Of a DNA stretch of 41,553 nt, positions 1,369 to 41,553 are shown piece after piece; positions within the stretch are counted from its first letter, which is position 1, and each line of letters starts with the position of its first letter. The notes under the pieces are model-generated. The model ran no database searches, had not been told where the DNA came from, and worked only from the letters and a program-made list of their open reading frames with translations. Source of the DNA: a virus (lineage: Duplodnaviria > Heunggongvirae > Uroviricota > Caudoviricetes); the IMG/VR virus record IMGVR_UViG_2534681759_000006. One strand, given 5' to 3'. The translations under genes were made by a program, and so were the position numbers.

Positions 1369-1444
1369 GCCGATATAGCTCAGTTGGTAGAGCAGCGCAT
1401 TCGTAATGCGAAGGTCGTAGGTTCGACTCCTATTATCGGCACCA
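1369..1444 (+). tRNA. thrW: tRNA-Thr (anticodon CGT), prophage integration target
   Basis: 76-nt cloverleaf GCCGATATAGCTCAGTTGGTAGAGCAGCGCATTCGTAATGCGAAGGTCGTAGGTTCGACTCCTATTATCGGCACCA with CCA end; anticodon loop TTCGTAAT gives CGT; location directly downstream of proA as for thrW. Confidence 0.9.
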
Positions 1445-7553: not shown

Positions 7554-7814
7554 ATGCAATCACCATTACGAAATGTGCGTAAGACGCATGGTTTCACTTT
7601 GCAGCATGTTGCTGCGGGTGTTCAAGTCAATCCAGCGACGTTGAGTCGTATTGAGAGGCTGGAGCAGATTCCATCTATCGAGCTTGCAGAACGTTTAGCC
7701 AATTTTTTTAAGGGTGAAGTCAGCGAAATGCAGATTCTTTATCCGGCACGTTTTCAATCTAGCCAAAACCAGAATGGGTTTAAACCACAGGAACAGGAGG
7801 TGAACCGTGGGTAA
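7554..7814 (+). CDS. cro: Cro-like HTH regulator (86 aa)
   Basis: XRE-type HTH (TLQHVAAGVQVNPATLSRIE); divergent to repressor. Confidence 0.75.
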   Translation: MQSPLRNVRKTHGFTLQHVAAGVQVNPATLSRIERLEQIPSIELAERLANFFKGEVSEMQILYPARFQSSQNQNGFKPQEQEVNRG

Positions 7815-8358
7815 GCATCACTGGAAAGTAGAAAAACAGCCTGAGTGGTACGTGAAAGCTGTCAGAAAAACTATCGCAGCGTTGCCGGGGGGTTACGCTG
7901 AAGCTGCTGACTGGCTGGATGTAACAGAGAACGCATTATTTAACCGCCTTCGTACCGATGGCGATCAGATTTTCCCGCTGGGATGGGCAATGATTTTGCA
8001 ACGTGCTGGTGGAACTCACTTCATTGCTGACGCTGTGGCGCAGTCTGCAAATGGCGTCTTTGTGTCTCTTCCTGATGTCGAGGATGTGGACAACGCCGAT
8101 ATCAACCAACGCCTGCTGGAGGTCATTGAACAGATCGGCAGTTATTCAAAACAGATTCGTTCAGCAATTGAAGACGGTGTAGTGGAACCGCATGAGAAGA
8201 CAGCAATTAACGACGAGCTGTACCTCTCAATTTCGAAGCTGCAGGAGCATGCAGCACTGGTCTACAAAATTTTTTGCATTTCAGAAAGTAATGACGCCCG
8301 CGAGTGTGCAGCTCCGGGCGCCGTGGCGTGTCGTGACTGTGGAGAAACTAACGCATGA
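7807..8358 (+). CDS. CII-like / YdaT-family regulatory protein (183 aa)
   Basis: Position immediately after cro and resemblance to prophage 'regulatory CII family' proteins; family assignment tentative. Confidence 0.45.
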
Positions 8359-13048: not shown

Positions 13049-13629
13049 TAATTCATATGAATTCTGTTTCCGAGATAATATAATCCAAAGAAAGTTGATA
13101 CTAAGAGTTGCCAAACGAGGAAAGTAAATACAACAGTATAAACCATTAAAACAAAACTGTTTTGATAGACATTGATTAATGGTGAAAATATAGCATTAAG
13201 TATTATTATAACAATGCTTAATGCTGTTAAAAAAGAGAATAGCATGCAAAGAAATAATCGTCTGGTCAGAACCTCCTCTGAATTTACTACTTTTCCATTT
13301 TCTTTTGTTACTTTTATTTCAATAGAGGCATTTCTTTCATTGCTAATCAATGGTAAATCAATCTCAGCTCTATTGAAAGTTGCTATGGCGGCCAGAGCGG
13401 CAATATAAAACCCTGGTAGGTTAGAGATAAATGAAACGATTGATTTAATGAAACCATTGTCATCAAATAAATCTTTGACAGGGATTTTTAATAGAATGAA
13501 AAGTACTGCTGTGATAGAAGTAAGTAGAATTGGTGCTACCCAATCATATGCAGCTTTGCCGCTAATACCTTTAATAAAAAGATATCCAAACGGCTTGCCT
13601 AGATGAGAGAAAACTGAAAGTATTGGCAT
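13045..13629 (-). CDS. AT-rich predicted 4-TM membrane protein (194 aa), second gene of a two-gene antisense moron cassette
   Basis: Four hydrophobic helix-length segments by eye; start 8 nt after the upstream gene's stop; markedly AT-rich. Confidence 0.7.
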   Translation of the reverse strand: MPILSVFSHLGKPFGYLFIKGISGKAAYDWVAPILLTSITAVLFILLKIPVKDLFDDNGFIKSIVSFISNLPGFYIAALAAIATFNRAEIDLPLISNERNASIEIKVTKENGKVVNSEEVLTRRLFLCMLFSFLTALSIVIIILNAIFSPLINVYQNSFVLMVYTVVFTFLVWQLLVSTFFGLYYLGNRIHMNY

Positions 13630-35388: not shown

Positions 35389-35832
35389 ATGAGTAATTAT
35401 TATTTTTCACGGACGACGTTAGCTTTTTATCCGGTAGATATGCTGGAGCTATATCGCTCATATGACAGCTTACCGGATGATATTACGCCAGTATCTGATG
35501 AAATATTTTTGACTTATTCAGGAACACCACCTGAAGGGAAAGCGCGCGGTGCAAATGATGATGGACAACCTGAGTGGGTTGATATTCCACCAATGACTCC
35601 TGAAGAAGCAATACTCCTTGCCACAGCTCAAAAACAAAATCTTATTGATAATGCCAACGAATATATGAACAGTAAGCAATGGCCTGGCAAAGCAGCTATT
35701 GGTCGTCTGAAAGGTGACGAACTGGCGCAATATAATTTGTGGCTGGATTACCTGGACGCACTGGAACTGGTCGATACTTCCGGTGCGCCAGATATTGAAT
35801 GGCCTACGCCTCCGGCAGTTCAGGCCAGATGA
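35389..35832 (+). CDS. tail fibre assembly chaperone (Tfa)
   Basis: Tfa C-terminal motif (NLWLDYLDAL...WPTPP). Confidence 0.8.
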   Translation: MSNYYFSRTTLAFYPVDMLELYRSYDSLPDDITPVSDEIFLTYSGTPPEGKARGANDDGQPEWVDIPPMTPEEAILLATAQKQNLIDNANEYMNSKQWPGKAAIGRLKGDELAQYNLWLDYLDALELVDTSGAPDIEWPTPPAVQAR

Positions 35833-36406
35833 CATCCGGCGCGGTGCTGGTATCTGTTACCGTCACAGCGTCAATGTAATCCAGCACGGCGTTAAGTCGG
35901 GTTGTTTCTGCCTGCGTCAACTTCCGTCCGGCCTGCAATTTCAGTTGAATCAGACTAATGGAAGCCATTGCAGTATCAATCAGTGACTGACGTTGTGCTT
36001 CTGCCGCGTCTACTGCGGCGCTATGCTGTGCCTCGGTATCCGTCACCCATTTCTCACCATCCCATTTATCGTATGGCGTTAACGGGGCGATAGTGGTTGT
36101 TTTTTCGGGGTAATCACCCGGAGTTGTGATTTCTTTGGCGTCTCCCGTTTCGGTGTTATAGACGATTTCACCGCGATGGTCTGGCACATATTCCCATGAG
36201 TTTAAATCCATCGAACGGCAGATAGCATAACCCGCCTTATGTGTGCCAGGGGCATCTAAACAGGAATATGCAGGGATACCGACGCCAACAGCAAGATATT
36301 CATTTGAAGTGGAAATATATTCTCGAGTTTCACCATCATAGTTATAGACGGTAATATTCCCTGCTTTGGTGGCGATAATCTCGCTATTTAATATGGCGTT
36401 ATCCAT
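35804..36406 (-). CDS. alternative tail fibre assembly chaperone (Tfa', inverted orientation)
   Basis: Tfa motif (LNAVLDYIDAV...WPELP); convergent with tfa. Confidence 0.8.
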   Translation of the reverse strand: MDNAILNSEIIATKAGNITVYNYDGETREYISTSNEYLAVGVGIPAYSCLDAPGTHKAGYAICRSMDLNSWEYVPDHRGEIVYNTETGDAKEITTPGDYPEKTTTIAPLTPYDKWDGEKWVTDTEAQHSAAVDAAEAQRQSLIDTAMASISLIQLKLQAGRKLTQAETTRLNAVLDYIDAVTVTDTSTAPDVIWPELPEA

Positions 36407-36895
36407 TATGCAGCCCTCACAATATAGTTAAATGCAATATTCCTTGGTCGAACCCTAAAACCAGCCCCTGCGCCTGCTCCAATTGGTGGCAATTCGATAG
36501 AGGGGTATGCTGTTGCAGGGGAATATAAACCTTCACGGGAATCATAATCAGTCGTCATATAGTTAGACGTATTATCAGAAACAGTTTCTGTCGGTCTGGT
36601 AACCAGACGATAAGAGCCAGTGGTTGGTGACCTGACCAGACCAAAACTTTCAACCAGAGTGGCTTTTTGAAAGCTTAATAATCCCCGACCACTGTCAGCT
36701 CCACGCCCGTCATCCCAGCCACGAATAAACTCACCACGTAAATCAGGCAATTTATTTGTCGGATAAGCCTTTGCCAGTTCCGGGTATTCTTCAGCAGAAA
36801 AAGCTGCACCGTTGCATTTCAGCCAGCCTGTCGGCGGAGTGGCTGAAGGCCATGGAACAGGGACACCAACAGGTAATGCCGAACCTTCTCCCAAA
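36406..36895 (-). CDS. alternative tail-fibre variable C-terminal segment (expressed only after inversion)
   Basis: Frame shares the GLGE crossover codons with the + strand fibre gene; tail-collar motif (GWLKCNGAAFSAEEYPELAKAY...LPDLRGEFIRG). Confidence 0.7.
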
Positions 36896-36965
36896 CCAAC
36901 GTTTATGAAAATGCAGAAATAACGAGCAAATGGCATCATTCCTGCTTTTGTCAGAGGGATCCACT

Positions 36966-37520
36966 ATGCTTATTGGCTATGTACGCGTATCAACAAATGA
37001 CCAGAACACCGATCTACAACGTAATGCGTTGAACTGTGCAGGATGTGAGCTGATGTTTGAAGACAAGATAAGCGGTACAAAGTCCGACAGACCAGGACTG
37101 AAAAAGCTGCTCAGGACACTATCGGCAGGTGACACGCTGGTGGTCTGGAAACTGGACCGACTGGGGCGCAGTATGCGGCATCTTGTCGTGCTGGTGGAGG
37201 AGTTGCGCGAACGAGGCATCAACTTTCGTAGTCTGACGGATTCAATTGATACCAGTACCCCAATGGGGCGCTTTTTCTTTCATGTGATGGGTGCCCTGGC
37301 TGAAATGGAGCGTGAACTGATTGTTGAACGAACAAAAGCTGGACTGGAAGCTGCTCGCGCACAGGGACGAATTGGTGGACGTCGTCCCAAACTTACACCA
37401 GAACAATGGGAGCAGGCCGGACGATTAATTGCATCAGGCGTTCCTCGCCAGAAGGTGGCGATCATCTATGATGTTGGTATATCGACACTGTATAAGAAGT
37501 TTCCGGTCGGAGATAAATGA
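36966..37520 (+). CDS. pin: serine DNA invertase (Pin/Gin/Hin family)
   Basis: N-terminal resolvase catalytic motif (LIGYVRVSTNDQNTDLQ), C-terminal HTH; adjacent to invertible segment. Confidence 0.9.
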   Translation: MLIGYVRVSTNDQNTDLQRNALNCAGCELMFEDKISGTKSDRPGLKKLLRTLSAGDTLVVWKLDRLGRSMRHLVVLVEELRERGINFRSLTDSIDTSTPMGRFFFHVMGALAEMERELIVERTKAGLEAARAQGRIGGRRPKLTPEQWEQAGRLIASGVPRQKVAIIYDVGISTLYKKFPVGDK

Positions 37521-37580: not shown

Positions 37581-38450
<870 letters not shown>

Positions 38451-38580: not shown

Positions 38581-38827
38581 CTGGCTGGTGAACTTCCGAT
38601 AGTGCGAGTATTGAATGATTTCCAACTGTTATCGATTTTGCGTATTTTTTGCATGAGAGGATTTTTACCTCCTCCCACCGATCCTCCATGGCTTTACGCC
38701 AGTGTCTCTGGTCTGCTATGTACCAGAAGCGGAAGTTGTGTCTGTTAGTATGATATTATAATTACACTCGCTTATAATAAGCCCACAATACAGATATAAA
38801 AATATCTCAACGCTTGGGAGTTAACAA

Positions 38828-39739
38828 ATGATTAACTTTACTGAAATTGATAGTGACGGTGAAGCCTGGGAGTCATTTGCCCGTGATTTTCTTGAAGAAC
38901 TTGGCTTTTATATTGAATCCGCGCCAGATAGAGGTGCAGATGGAGGTAAAGATCTTTTAATCACAGAGCAATTGCAAGGTCAGTTAAATAAATATAAATT
39001 TCGTTGGCTTGTTAGCTGTAAACATTATGCAACAAGTAAAAAATCAGTTTCAGAAAAGGATGAGATTAATATACAAGAACGTATTGATGGATTCAATGCC
39101 GACGGATTTATTGGATTTTACTCAACACTGCCAAGTAGTGGTTTAAATTCAAGAATGACGCAATTAAAAGAGAATGGAAAAATAAAGGACTTTCGATTCT
39201 TTGATGGTAAATTAATTGAAAATCACTTAGTCAGAATTGGTTACTCAAAACTACTCCTTAGATACTTTCCTGAGAGCTATAAAAAAATAAAACCCAAGCA
39301 TTTGATTTTTGATAAGTACTTACCTATAAAATGTGATCGTTGTGGAAAGGACTTAATAGAAAACCATCATGAAGAAAATTATGATGGCATTGTGTGCAAT
39401 GCAGAGATCATACACGATGACAAACCAAATGAGGTGATAGCGGTTTATTATGCGTGTAAAGGTGATTGTGATAAGCATTTTGAGGATTATTTTTGGAATG
39501 AATATAAAGCGATTACGAGATGGCAGGATATAAGTGATCTAGCCATCCCATTATTCTATCTCAAATGGATTATGGGGACATTTAATGAACTTGAGTATGG
39601 AAGGAAAACATATACCAAAGAAGCCTTCAATAAAACAAAGGAGATAACATTAGCGCTATCTCAAATTGTTATGAGAGAAATGACAGAAAAAGAAAGAGAA
39701 AGAGTGATGGCTTTGAATTCACTACCTGATTACATATAA
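38828..39739 (+). CDS. Mrr-like PD-(D/E)xK restriction-endonuclease-fold protein with Cys-rich C-terminal domain (303 aa), very AT-rich
   Basis: N-terminal pattern FARDFLEELGF...DRGADGGKDLL...VSCKHY resembles the Mrr catalytic domain; C-terminal CDRCGKD...C...CKGDC. Confidence 0.5.
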   Translation: MINFTEIDSDGEAWESFARDFLEELGFYIESAPDRGADGGKDLLITEQLQGQLNKYKFRWLVSCKHYATSKKSVSEKDEINIQERIDGFNADGFIGFYSTLPSSGLNSRMTQLKENGKIKDFRFFDGKLIENHLVRIGYSKLLLRYFPESYKKIKPKHLIFDKYLPIKCDRCGKDLIENHHEENYDGIVCNAEIIHDDKPNEVIAVYYACKGDCDKHFEDYFWNEYKAITRWQDISDLAIPLFYLKWIMGTFNELEYGRKTYTKEAFNKTKEITLALSQIVMREMTEKERERVMALNSLPDYI

Positions 39740-39910
39740 ATTATATTTACTAACATTTGAACTAGCGCATCTTTGGTGCAGAGACACCACCATCTTGGGG
39801 ACACTGTGAGGCCACTGGCTTCCCAACTTATCGTTATACAGGATAATAAGGTGCTCCAGGGTGGCTATGAACTTGATGTTACGTCTGCGATTTGCTCATA
39901 AGGGACAACC

Positions 39911-39947
39911 ATACTCAAATCTCCCACATTGCAGGAGATTTGAGTAT
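39911..39947. promoter_or_regulatory. perfect 14-bp palindrome ATACTCAAATCTCC-N8-GGAGATTTGAGTAT overlapping the SD and start codon of the recombinase gene
   Basis: Read directly; the right arm contains GGAG and ends in the ATG. Confidence 0.8.
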
Positions 39948-40548
39948 GAACACGTCACCGTGGAACAAAGACCGTATCATCGGCCAAAAAAGACCACTTC
40001 AGATATCTCATATCTGGGGGATCCGAATCCGGCTTGAACTGGAAGGTAAAACGCGCGATTTAGCTCAGTTCGATATGGTCCTGGACAGTAAGCTACGAGG
40101 CTGTGATCTGGTCAAACTCAAAGTATCTGATGTTGCATATGGTAGCTCTGCTTCAAGCAGAGCTACGGTGCTGCAACAGAAAACCGGTAGCCCTGTGCAG
40201 TTTGAGATAACCAAAGGGACAAGAGAAGCTGTTGCTGCATTGATAATGCTTGGCAATTTGCATAGTAAAGACTTCTTGTTTCGGTTTCTGGTCGGAACTA
40301 ATCAGCTCATATCTACCCGGCAATACAACCGAATTTTTCATGGGTGGGTAGAAAAGCTTGGTCTCGAAGATTCGCTTTACAGCACTCATTCCATGAGAAG
40401 AACAAAACCTTACCTGATCTACAAGAAAACCAAGAATCTTCGGGTGATCCAACTTCTGTTGGGCCATAAGAAACTGGAAAGCACAGTCCGTTATCTGGGT
40501 ATTGAAGTAGATGATGTGTTAGAGATCTCTGAATCGATTGAAGTCTAA
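39946..40548 (+). CDS. small tyrosine recombinase, catalytic domain only (about 200 aa; FimB/FimE-like size)
   Basis: Catalytic motifs LRGCDLVKLKVSDV (box I), HSMRRT (H-x-x-R), LLGHKKLESTVRYLG (H..Y); no N-terminal core-binding domain. Confidence 0.7.
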   Translation: MNTSPWNKDRIIGQKRPLQISHIWGIRIRLELEGKTRDLAQFDMVLDSKLRGCDLVKLKVSDVAYGSSASSRATVLQQKTGSPVQFEITKGTREAVAALIMLGNLHSKDFLFRFLVGTNQLISTRQYNRIFHGWVEKLGLEDSLYSTHSMRRTKPYLIYKKTKNLRVIQLLLGHKKLESTVRYLGIEVDDVLEISESIEV

Positions 40549-40585
40549 GGTTGTCAGGGCTGCAACAACAGCCCTGTGCCAGGAG

Positions 40586-40614
40586 TTGACACTGTTAGCA
40601 TCGCGCTATGTTAA
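40586..40614 (+). promoter_or_regulatory. candidate sigma70 promoter (TTGACA, then a TG-containing -10 region) upstream of the last gene
   Basis: Consensus -35 hexamer read in sequence 17 bp upstream of TGTTAA; preceded by hairpin CAGGGCTG caacaa CAGCCCTG. Confidence 0.4.
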
Positions 40615-40680
40615 TCTATGTTGAGCAGTTAAAAATGATAATGTAGTTTATATGGATAATCAGTTTATAGAGTGGGTGAG

Positions 40681-41553
40681 ATGGAACTAGATGAAACACT
40701 TGAAGTTATCAAAAATAATTTTAGTAATAATCAGAAGAAACTATTTAAAAGGATTGAGCCAGCCACTAACCGTCAAGTAGCTATCGGTCTTATTAGTTTA
40801 CAAGGAGTGGAAAAAACATCTCAGGCTGAGATAGAGGTAATTGCCGGCCTCATATCTCAGTTTAGTCCATTGGAAATCGATAGTTTTCAAAATTCACCAC
40901 GACGAATAACTCTGAAAGGTCAATTCCCAAACGGACATATTGTTTATATCGAGCCTCAGTATAAGGTTGGCAATATAAACCCAAAAGCCCAGCCTTGGGC
41001 AATAGACCTTGTCCTTAGACTAAATAGATGGATTGGTCAAGATTTGGTTGAGATTGCTGCTATTGGCATCGAGTATGATGGCCACATAGCTCATTATGTG
41101 GAAAGTAAAATTAAGTCTACTTACAAGCGTGATGCAGTAATAACTAGTAACGAAGGATTTCAATCGATTAGGATCTCACCAGAACAATGGAAATCGTCTA
41201 AAGAGGATCTTAAGAAGGCAATTAAAAAGTATTTTGAACATCACATAAAAAAAATTGAAAAAGTTCAACTAAGCACAATAAACGCCCAAAATTTCAACAA
41301 TTTTATTTATGAAAATGAAAATGAAGTGATATCCACTGTAACTTGCCCTTTATGTAATGGAAAAGGCAGTTTAGCGGGAGAAGATTGTCCGATCTGTAAT
41401 GGAATGGGATCCGTAAAAAGATATATTGCTGCAAAGGTGAATCTTTCTAATTATGAAAAATTCACTTGTCCTGACTGCAGGAATATAAAATTAGATTGCA
41501 GAACCTGCAATGGTGAAGGATCAATTAGCAGAGAAAAAGCATTAGAAATGTAA
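40681..41553 (+). CDS. AT-rich protein with C-terminal DnaJ-type zinc-finger repeats (CxxCxGxG) and a possible PD-(D/E)xK/DUF559-like N-terminal domain
   Basis: C-terminal CPLCNGKGS, CPICNGMGS, CPDC, CRTCNGEGS; N-terminal IDLVL...IEYDGHIAH resembles the DUF559/Vsr-like motif (tentative). Confidence 0.6.
   Translation: MELDETLEVIKNNFSNNQKKLFKRIEPATNRQVAIGLISLQGVEKTSQAEIEVIAGLISQFSPLEIDSFQNSPRRITLKGQFPNGHIVYIEPQYKVGNINPKAQPWAIDLVLRLNRWIGQDLVEIAAIGIEYDGHIAHYVESKIKSTYKRDAVITSNEGFQSIRISPEQWKSSKEDLKKAIKKYFEHHIKKIEKVQLSTINAQNFNNFIYENENEVISTVTCPLCNGKGSLAGEDCPICNGMGSVKRYIAAKVNLSNYEKFTCPDCRNIKLDCRTCNGEGSISREKALEM

Follow-up and report, generated by a model that had tools for sequence, protein, structure and literature searches.

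The window analysed here is a stretch of 41,553 nt held as IMG/VR virus record IMGVR_UViG_2534681759_000006. It represents an essentially whole Escherichia coli prophage of ~40 kb at thrW, whose head genes are of the HK97 type and whose tail is contractile; the window extends from proA/thrW up to the last prophage gene. This last gene is the subject of our analysis. It is an open reading frame (ORF) of 290 aa on the plus strand, running from an ATG at 40681 to a TAA at 41551-41553, which is the last codon of the window. Positions of all features are collected in Table 1. An exact 32-nt repeat connects the 3’ end of thrW (window 1399-1430) with positions 13310-13341 of the E. coli locus L001, 306 nt past the stop codon. 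This second copy is attR; it is located just outside the window and is followed by truncated host genes. A preliminary description made from the sequence of the window had pointed out correctly that the stop falls on the very last base, and that a partner gene downstream would escape notice. Since attR and host genes follow, no such partner is hidden there. The cargo between the pinE invertase and attR consists of four genes, namely PD-T4-3, a gene for an Mrr_cat protein, a tyrosine recombinase gene of 200 codons and the gene described here, all of this apart from the structural and replication modules of the prophage.

The gene is AT-rich as described before, with 35.4% GC compared to 49.9% for the window. 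An alternative start (GTG at 40672) is possible, but the N-termini of the family align to the ATG at 40681 instead. A promoter of its own had been proposed for the gene and could not be recovered, as a consensus scan of the upstream region revealed no canonical sigma-70 promoter. A -10 hexamer spaced 16-18 nt away is missing for the TTGACA at 40586-40591, which sits within the arm of a palindrome resembling a recombination site.

The structure of the protein was modelled using AlphaFold2 on the family alignment. The mean pLDDT is 88, with poor values only at the linker (residues 212-215). The model consists of three short N-terminal helices, a nuclease core, a long helical stalk that is possibly a coiled-coil dimerisation element, and a cysteine-rich tail. 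The core can be superimposed on the restriction-endonuclease-like alpha/beta core of Vsr/DUF559 structures. Residues D109, E131, D133, G134 and H138 are invariant in 32 family members and retained in sister clades. They are placed on consecutive strands in the fashion of DUF559 (D109 / E131-x-D133-G / H138), and we take D...E-x-D-G...H to be the putative catalytic motif known from that family. Among the fold relatives, the listed figures are 9.7 for NGO0050 (3HRL; 92 of 94 residues aligned), 8.6 for the RAP domain of FASTKD4, 8.3 for the homing endonuclease I-Bth0305I, 7.7 for Vsr and 7.6 for AbaSI; many restriction enzymes, Hjc, TnsA and Can2/Card1 follow at lower ranks. A viral structure library returned DUF559, DUF2726 and ‘VSR homing endonuclease’ proteins. 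Hence the N-terminal domain, which had been suggested to be nuclease-like, indeed compares to Vsr/DUF559-type nucleases and not to a non-nuclease fold.

Sequence models place the domain at some distance from curated families. Pfam MTES_1575 REase matches residues 103-181 (E 2.6e-4, 21.5 bits against a gathering score of 38.2) and 18 of the 32 members, always below threshold, and the Pfam DUF559 model itself does not match the protein. As the scores stay under the gathering cut-off, we regard the nuclease as a divergent relative rather than a member of a curated family. Foldseek with the whole model against the PDB gave weak matches only (best E 0.024), because a multi-domain model dilutes local similarity. 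Sequence and profile searches of the PDB matched the zinc tail and never the nuclease, and an HNH domain was not detected. Judged from model and alignment, the core is apparently a conserved and catalytic nuclease of the Vsr/DUF559 type.

The tail contains all cysteines of the protein, exactly eight, within four CxxC motifs (residues 222-276); the last of them is followed by 14 residues. All motifs cited in the preliminary description are present: IDLVL (108-112) and IEYDGHIAH (130-138) in the nuclease, CPLCNGKGS (222-230), CPICNGMGS (236-244), CPDC (263-266) and CRTCNGEGS (273-281) in the tail. C222, C225 and C236 are invariant among the 32 members, while C239, C263, C266, C273 and C276 are conserved in at least 90%. 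With such conservation the motif set does not arise by chance. Pfam DnaJ_CXXCXGXG (PF00684) matches residues 222-280 (E 2e-6, 28.4 bits, gathering score 32.7) and 24 of the 32 members, and the family profile matches DnaJ 1EXK at E 5e-6. The spacing of unit 1 is 14 residues and identical to that of Anti-TRAP, and Foldseek aligns this unit to 3LD0 over 40 columns (35% identity, probability 0.95). Moreover, a unit with its linker is repeated in 2-8 copies, odd numbers included, in relatives fused to HNH nucleases. The Anti-TRAP spacing, the 3LD0 alignment, these copy numbers and the (V/I)(D/N)LSxY linker that comes after each unit suggest that the tail forms two sequential Cys4 units and not an interleaved hairpin as in DnaJ. 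The four DnaJ-type repeats announced earlier are four CxxC motifs that PF00684 matches below its gathering score. Only three of them are complete CxxCxGxG, and two Cys4 units in tandem, of the Anti-TRAP kind, probably describe the tail better.

Models of DnaJ families cover only residues 212-289 and reach 25-31 bits, far from their cut-offs of 338-619. Neither Pfam nor NCBIfam detected a J domain, even at E<=1, and a G/F region and a DnaJ C-terminal domain (DnaJ_C) were equally undetected. Lacking the J and C-terminal domains, the protein is not a chaperone; the possibility raised at the outset that the protein belongs to a known chaperone-associated family did not materialise. The characterised relatives of the tail, i.e. 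the DnaJ cysteine-rich domain, Anti-TRAP and BSD2, bind proteins. Its net charge, counted from the sequence, is ~+2 and no strongly basic surface is present.

The two-CxxC unit with its (V/I)DLSxY linker was also met in other settings. In this set (P0054-P0110, P0126, P0127, P0144, P0145, P0152, P0153), HNH_2 proteins of ~500 aa bear up to 7-8 units in tandem, and free-standing proteins of 80-120 aa consist of two units. The sequences suggest a repeat module that is widespread but uncharacterised.

The family is small. A search of 5.8 billion proteins yielded 31 clusters at 90% identity, and an exhaustive profile search of 1.84 billion representative proteins ~35 full-length representatives. 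Almost all derive from Gammaproteobacteria (Vibrio, Photobacterium, Pseudomonas, Pseudoalteromonas), with Delftia as outlier. Family loci number 8 in 185,579 species genomes, 8 in a metagenome collection and 3 in IMG/VR. The gene itself occurs in 8 of 5,426 complete E. coli genomes (0.15%) with 99-100% identity, always on mobile DNA, and tblastn found a fragment of the zinc tail alone in one Methylobacterium plasmid.

Both halves of the protein are found with other partners. The N-terminal chassis of helices, nuclease and stalk bears different C-termini in several relatives (P0045, P0053, P0062, P0082, P0046, P0112). A short P(E/D)(F/L)E(I/V) motif closes the proteins of one sister clade (~240 aa), while the C-terminus of other relatives (332-362 aa) is occupied by unrelated domains. 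The catalytic-type residues are kept throughout, as are the N-terminal helices (residues 1-44) in sister clades devoid of the zinc tail. Conversely, stalk and zinc tail also terminate HNH nucleases, and the tail is found in hundreds of representative clusters. A nuclease with this tail is thus a recurring design whose halves are exchanged independently, a pattern typical of immune effector/sensor pairs. The preliminary description did not recall the combination from any described defence protein. This does not hold for the general architecture, since nuclease and tail recur on HNH proteins including PDC-M01B; the Vsr-like version is indeed unreported in the literature searched. There, WP_000417871.1 is not mentioned, and the integron-defence papers searched, with incomplete coverage of the work on V. 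parahaemolyticus, do not mention a Vsr/DUF559 plus zinc/DnaJ architecture.

No neighbour is conserved across taxa at the loci examined. A methyltransferase was not found beside any copy there, nor was a PtuA-type ATPase next to the family, a conserved small antitoxin-like ORF at the loci compared, or an intron, intein or interrupted conserved gene; the gene is intergenic cargo. In V. parahaemolyticus it is the only gene of a cassette enclosed by two attC repeats (~125 nt each) of the superintegron, and its neighbours differ in three strains. The repeats are located at 7806-7930 and 8857-8984 of L004; a 61-nt repeat family is represented 23 times in this array. In Photobacterium phosphoreum (L012) the gene is the first cassette by intI (TIGR02249, 467.5 bits, cut-off 265). 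Its divergent neighbour is PD-Lambda-4_A in Delftia and its neighbour is PDC-S31 in Pseudomonas sp. ML96, while BrnT-like and HEPN genes are close by in P. aeruginosa. Another copy, 84% identical at the protein level, is found on a Pantoea-type P1-like phage-plasmid. Some loci are small low-GC insertions amid housekeeping genes. In none of the hosts examined is the gene richer in GC than the locus around it, and in GC-rich hosts it falls 15-24 points below. Other candidate partnerships were rejected: recombinase and Mrr_cat gene are both absent beside homologues in other taxa, and the protein has no PD-Lambda-4 match that would make it the PD-Lambda-4_B of the Delftia locus.

The Vibrio and Photobacterium homologues are hence integron cassettes; the E. 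coli copy has different sites of 24 nt. GTTRRRY-type attC sites around the latter were considered and discarded, as inspection by eye gave matches at chance level only. The window is homologous at the nucleotide level to the P1-like plasmid L011 (85%) and to the metagenome contig L027 (95%) from ~40575-40577 to a point 57-59 nt past the stop codon. The resulting unit is a cassette of ~1.04 kb, both borders of which lie in imperfect 24-nt palindromes, GTCCGCT-N10-AGCGGAC. An A-type site (spacer ~TGTGCCAGG) is located 5’ and a B-type site (spacer ~CCTCGCTCA) 3’ of the gene. Intact A sites are found at 5887-5910 of L027, with the sequence GTCCGCTGTGTGCCAGGAGCGGAC, and at 7888-7911 of L011. The arms of the E. 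coli B site have co-varied (GTCTGCT...AACAGAC), so that the palindrome is preserved. A related Pantoea plasmid represents the empty site, lacking a unit of 1,058 bp at the same intergenic position. Low GC and the comparison of the P1-like plasmid carrying the cassette with this plasmid show that the gene is horizontally transferred.

Array regions were compared between the window (38711-38734, 39883-39906 and 39946-40590), L027 (5848-8622) and the recombinase contexts L034-L037. Each gene has its A site 5’ and its B site 3’, so that one cassette passes into the next through a B-16 nt-A junction (L027, L034-L036). The hairpin 3’ of the recombinase is fused to an A-type half site; it is kept in L027 and L034-L037, and the sequence past ...CCCTGTGCCA differs in each context. 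A B-type site similar to the degenerate one in the window lies just 5’ of the recombinase in L034 (4984-5007). The recombinase is common, being present on chromosomes, prophages and plasmids of 905 of the 5,426 E. coli genomes (~17% of complete genomes), and the gene following it differs in each of the four contexts examined. Four unrelated contexts yielded ten cassette proteins in its vicinity, three of which are PD-T7-1, PD-T7-5 and HEC-08. Judging from this arrangement, the 200-aa recombinase is probably the driver of the cassette array and not a functional partner of the nuclease. Such recombinase-cassette arrays are not described in the literature searched.

Taken together, we favour the reading that the gene is a self-contained mobile cassette whose single product is a nuclease, most likely for defence against phages or other mobile elements; we put its probability at roughly 60%. 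It builds on the conserved nuclease, the conserved eight-cysteine tail, the mobility as one gene by two cassette systems and its recurrent position amid defence genes, validated or candidate, namely PD-T4-3 and Mrr_cat in the window, PD-Lambda-4_A in Delftia, PDC-S31 in Pseudomonas ML96, and PD-T7-1, PD-T7-5 and HEC-08 in the cassettes around other copies of the recombinase. The lack of a conserved neighbour, the attR 306 nt downstream and the single-gene attC cassette in V. parahaemolyticus imply that it acts alone, and mobility as a solo cassette among known anti-phage genes makes a single-gene phage-defence system most likely. A direct precedent exists in single-gene integron cassettes where a nuclease is fused to another domain and defence has been validated by experiment (bioRxiv 10.1101/2024.07.02.601686). 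In the proposed mechanism the nuclease would be the effector and use a divalent metal to cleave nucleic acid, which is probably DNA, and the stalk would probably dimerise the enzyme. The zinc tail would serve as an exchangeable module for specificity or regulation. As its relatives bind proteins, it would most likely recognise a phage-derived protein or complex, by analogy, and then license or recruit the nuclease, whereby self-DNA would be spared without a methyltransferase.

Several points weigh against this reading. Phage resistance, nuclease activity and zinc binding are all predictions from sequence, and that the tail senses a protein is argued by analogy only. Neither Pfam domain match attains its gathering score, and PADLOC matches the tail only, with no full-length model. 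The match to the FASTKD4 RAP domain makes an RNA substrate possible. Housekeeping genes are neighbours at several loci (guaBA in Halomonas, a sulfatase and a histidine kinase in Pseudomonas). The family is so rare that guilt by association draws on few independent loci, and tblastn found no homologue in 50,697 phage records.

The same architecture could belong to a constitutive, Type IV-style restriction-like enzyme whose tail reads modified or non-self DNA, ends or structures while the Vsr-like domain cuts, with no phage protein as trigger. The missing methyltransferase would suit such an enzyme, a Type IV SRA-HNH cassette resides in the same Vibrio array, and tandem arrays of 2-8 zinc units resemble nucleic-acid-binding knuckles. 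Yet all characterised relatives of the tail bind proteins, its small net charge and lack of a strongly basic surface are at odds with DNA reading, and neither an SRA-like nor another known DNA-reading fold is found in the protein. We thus consider this explanation unlikely, if worth keeping in view. Rather less probable is a selfish nuclease, either a homing endonuclease that stands on its own or an addiction toxin that stabilises the cassette, which would persist by its own spread or retention and not by protecting the host. A phage ‘group I intron-associated VSR homing endonuclease’ resembles the protein, its distribution is sporadic, rare and AT-rich, and toxin-antitoxin genes are frequent in integron arrays, with BrnT as a neighbour in P. 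aeruginosa. However, no locus places the gene in an intron or intein or has a conserved gene interrupted by it, the flanking recombination sites already account for its mobility, no conserved antitoxin-like small ORF lies alongside, and eight E. coli genomes stably carry it without partner at 99-100% identity.

Very improbable, finally, is a role in housekeeping or the phage life cycle that has nothing to do with conflict. Candidates of this kind are a mismatch or repair nuclease resembling Vsr, a factor associated with chaperones, and a protein that binds nucleic acids without catalysis like eukaryotic RAP domains. Against such roles speak the strictly conserved catalytic-type residues and the undetected J and DnaJ C-terminal domains; a dcm-type methyltransferase is not adjacent. 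Moreover, a gene present in only 0.15% of E. coli genomes, always on mobile DNA, and positioned in the cargo by attR outside the structural and replication modules hardly fits such a function.

The stand-alone defence nuclease proposed here can be compared with several known systems. DUF559/Vsr-like endonucleases (NGO0050 3HRL, E. coli Vsr 1CW0, MTES_1575) show sequence similarity below Pfam thresholds. In contrast to these, the protein adds the N-terminal helices, the long stalk and the zinc tail, has no Dcm partner and travels in mobile cassettes instead of residing at a repair locus; the Dcm linkage of Vsr mismatch-repair orthologues is lacking, as no copy has a methyltransferase beside it. 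EDxHD homing endonucleases (I-Bth0305I-type) share the fold alone, since the gene lies neither in a group I intron or intein nor by a cognate target gene. The Type IV enzymes AbaSI and PvuRts1I likewise combine Vsr-like cleavage with a separate recognition domain in one polypeptide without methyltransferase. Their recognition domain is SRA-like and reads hydroxymethylcytosine or its glucosylated form (hmC/ghmC), whereas our protein has a Cys4 zinc module as its second domain, for which no similarity to SRA was detected.

The closest system on the side of the tail is PDC-M01, a Septu-like pair of a PtuA-type ATPase and the HNH protein PDC-M01B. One of the PDC-M01B profiles, PDLC04253, shares stalk and two-unit tail (E 6e-15, residues 176-289), the match covering only profile positions 269-362 of 366. 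P0138 is a full-length PDC-M01B (E ~1e-130) and, given the PtuA-like ATPase gene upstream of it, belongs to a Septu-like system. PDC-M01 has an HNH nuclease and needs this upstream ATPase, while our protein has neither; most PDC-M01B profiles lack the zinc tail. Anti-TRAP (RtpA) has CxxCxGxG and the 14-residue spacing in common with unit 1. The DnaJ cysteine-rich domain shares CxxCxGxG, but its sites are interleaved (1+4 / 2+3), as opposed to the likely sequential Cys4 sites predicted here; compared to DnaJ/Hsp40, the J domain, the G/F region and the DnaJ C-terminal domain are all missing, and GxG is found on three of four motifs. The integron defence cassettes Epona, Divona, Damona, Sirona and Nemetona (Darracq et al., bioRxiv 10.1101/2024.07.02.601686) and Shedu-type proteins are one-gene combinations of a nuclease with a variable domain. 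Carriage as an integron cassette is common to the systems of Darracq et al. and the homologues of our gene, which differs from all of these, Shedu-type included, in nuclease subtype and partner domain.

Fold, zinc motif and design logic are accordingly known; new are the unannotated family and its lack of a full-length PADLOC model. If confirmed, the gene would represent a compact one-gene defence of 290 aa which joins a Vsr-type effector to a tandem Cys4 sensor of the Anti-TRAP/DnaJ type, a pairing undescribed in immunity, and would assign a function to the zinc tail of Septu-like HNH proteins as well. If it gives no protection, it is one more orphan nuclease at a prophage end. The cassette borders point to a second, non-integron route by which prophages and plasmids of E. 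coli swap single-gene defences, and can be used as a search handle for further systems. A more far-reaching and doubtful proposal joins two novelties, a single-gene immune nuclease with a protein-sensing zinc tail and an integron-like platform for defence cassettes in Enterobacterales. The Anti-TRAP/DnaJ-like cysteine-rich tail would here act as bait for phage proteins that engage host chaperones or form oligomers, switch the nuclease on, and be a plug-in sensor common to this protein and the Septu-like HNH effectors. Recombinase and attI-like site would stockpile single-gene defence cassettes, among them PD-T7-1, PD-T7-5, HEC-08, the Mrr-like gene and the gene described here.

Table 1. Features at the two ends of the prophage and domains of the encoded protein. 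Positions refer to the window; sites and structural elements are predicted.
Feature	Position	Strand	Residues	Evidence or remark
tRNA-Thr (thrW), attL side	1369..1444	+		ARAGORN
PD-T4-3, LEM-3-like GIY-YIG nuclease	37581..38354	-		PADLOC E 2.4e-140, full length; Pfam LEM-3_GIY-YIG
A-type site GTCTGCTATGTACCAGAAGCGGAA	38711..38734	+		Upstream of Mrr_cat cassette
Mrr_cat-type restriction-endonuclease-like protein	38828..39739	+	303 aa	Pfam Mrr_cat E 2.3e-5, above gathering score; 32-35% GC
Degenerate B-type site GTCTGCGATTTGCTCATAAGGGAC	39883..39906	+		Closes Mrr_cat cassette
Tyrosine recombinase	39946..40548	+	200 aa	Pfam Phage_integrase E 2e-14; directly upstream of the nuclease gene
Recombinase 3’ hairpin CAGGGCTGCAACAACAGCCCTG	40555..40576	+		Conserved left part of recombinase-proximal attI-like site
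A-type right half site TGCCAGGAGTTGAC	40577..40590	+		Left border of the nuclease cassette
Cassette leader	40591..40680	+		AT-rich, contains GATAAT; kept in L011 and L027
Nuclease gene, coding sequence	40681..41553	+	290 aa + stop	WP_000417871.1, RefSeq ‘hypothetical protein’, identical start
N-terminal helices, three short	40681..40812	+	1-44	AlphaFold2 pLDDT 89-97; conserved S15, Q18, K20, L21, I25
Vsr/DUF559-type PD-(D/E)xK nuclease core	40813..41178	+	45-166	Invariant in family alignment: S47, E50, Q93, D109 (codon 41005-41007), E131 (41071-41073), Y132, D133 (41077-41079), G134, H138, E141, K145, Y148, R150
Helical stalk, one long amphipathic helix	41179..41313	+	167-211 (45 residues)	AlphaFold2, DSSP
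Zinc unit 1, CPLCNGKG-x6-CPICNGMG	41335..41418	+	219-246	phmmer matches Anti-TRAP 3LCZ/2BX9, DnaJ 1EXK
Zinc unit 2, CPDC-x6-CRTCNGEG	41458..41529	+	260-283	Preceded by (V/I)(D/N)LSxY linker motif

Some further observations concern the surroundings of the gene. PD-T4-3 is a validated single-gene defence system, and its homologue is placed between the pinE invertase and the cassette array. The Mrr_cat protein combines an N-terminal Mrr_cat nuclease with a Cys/His-rich C-terminal half and gave no PADLOC match. Its gene has a cassette of its own, bounded by A and B sites, and is another candidate for a defence function. An intact serine invertase of the Pin/Gin type (36930-37520) adjoins oppositely oriented genes for a tail fibre and a tail-fibre assembly protein, the whole (35804-37520) being a host-range inversion switch; pinE is annotated as frameshifted in strain E275a. 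A paoABC-type operon for a molybdenum aldehyde oxidoreductase is located 2-4 kb from the gene both in E. coli (L001, 13864-18667) and in P. aeruginosa (L006/L008, 12840-16539). This shared proximity is probably a coincidence and could also reflect a shared insertion hotspot.

Within the family, three proteins (P0002, P0003, P0028) carry the precomputed Pfam label PF27659.1, which is newer than the Pfam version used and whose name was not found; a curated family PF27659 may already cover the N-terminal part. One metagenome-assembled genome of Endozoicomonadaceae contains two diverged copies of the gene (L013 and L018, 60% and 66% identity to the query). They reside in duplicated segments of ~7 kb, and each is followed by a group II intron reverse transcriptase/maturase.

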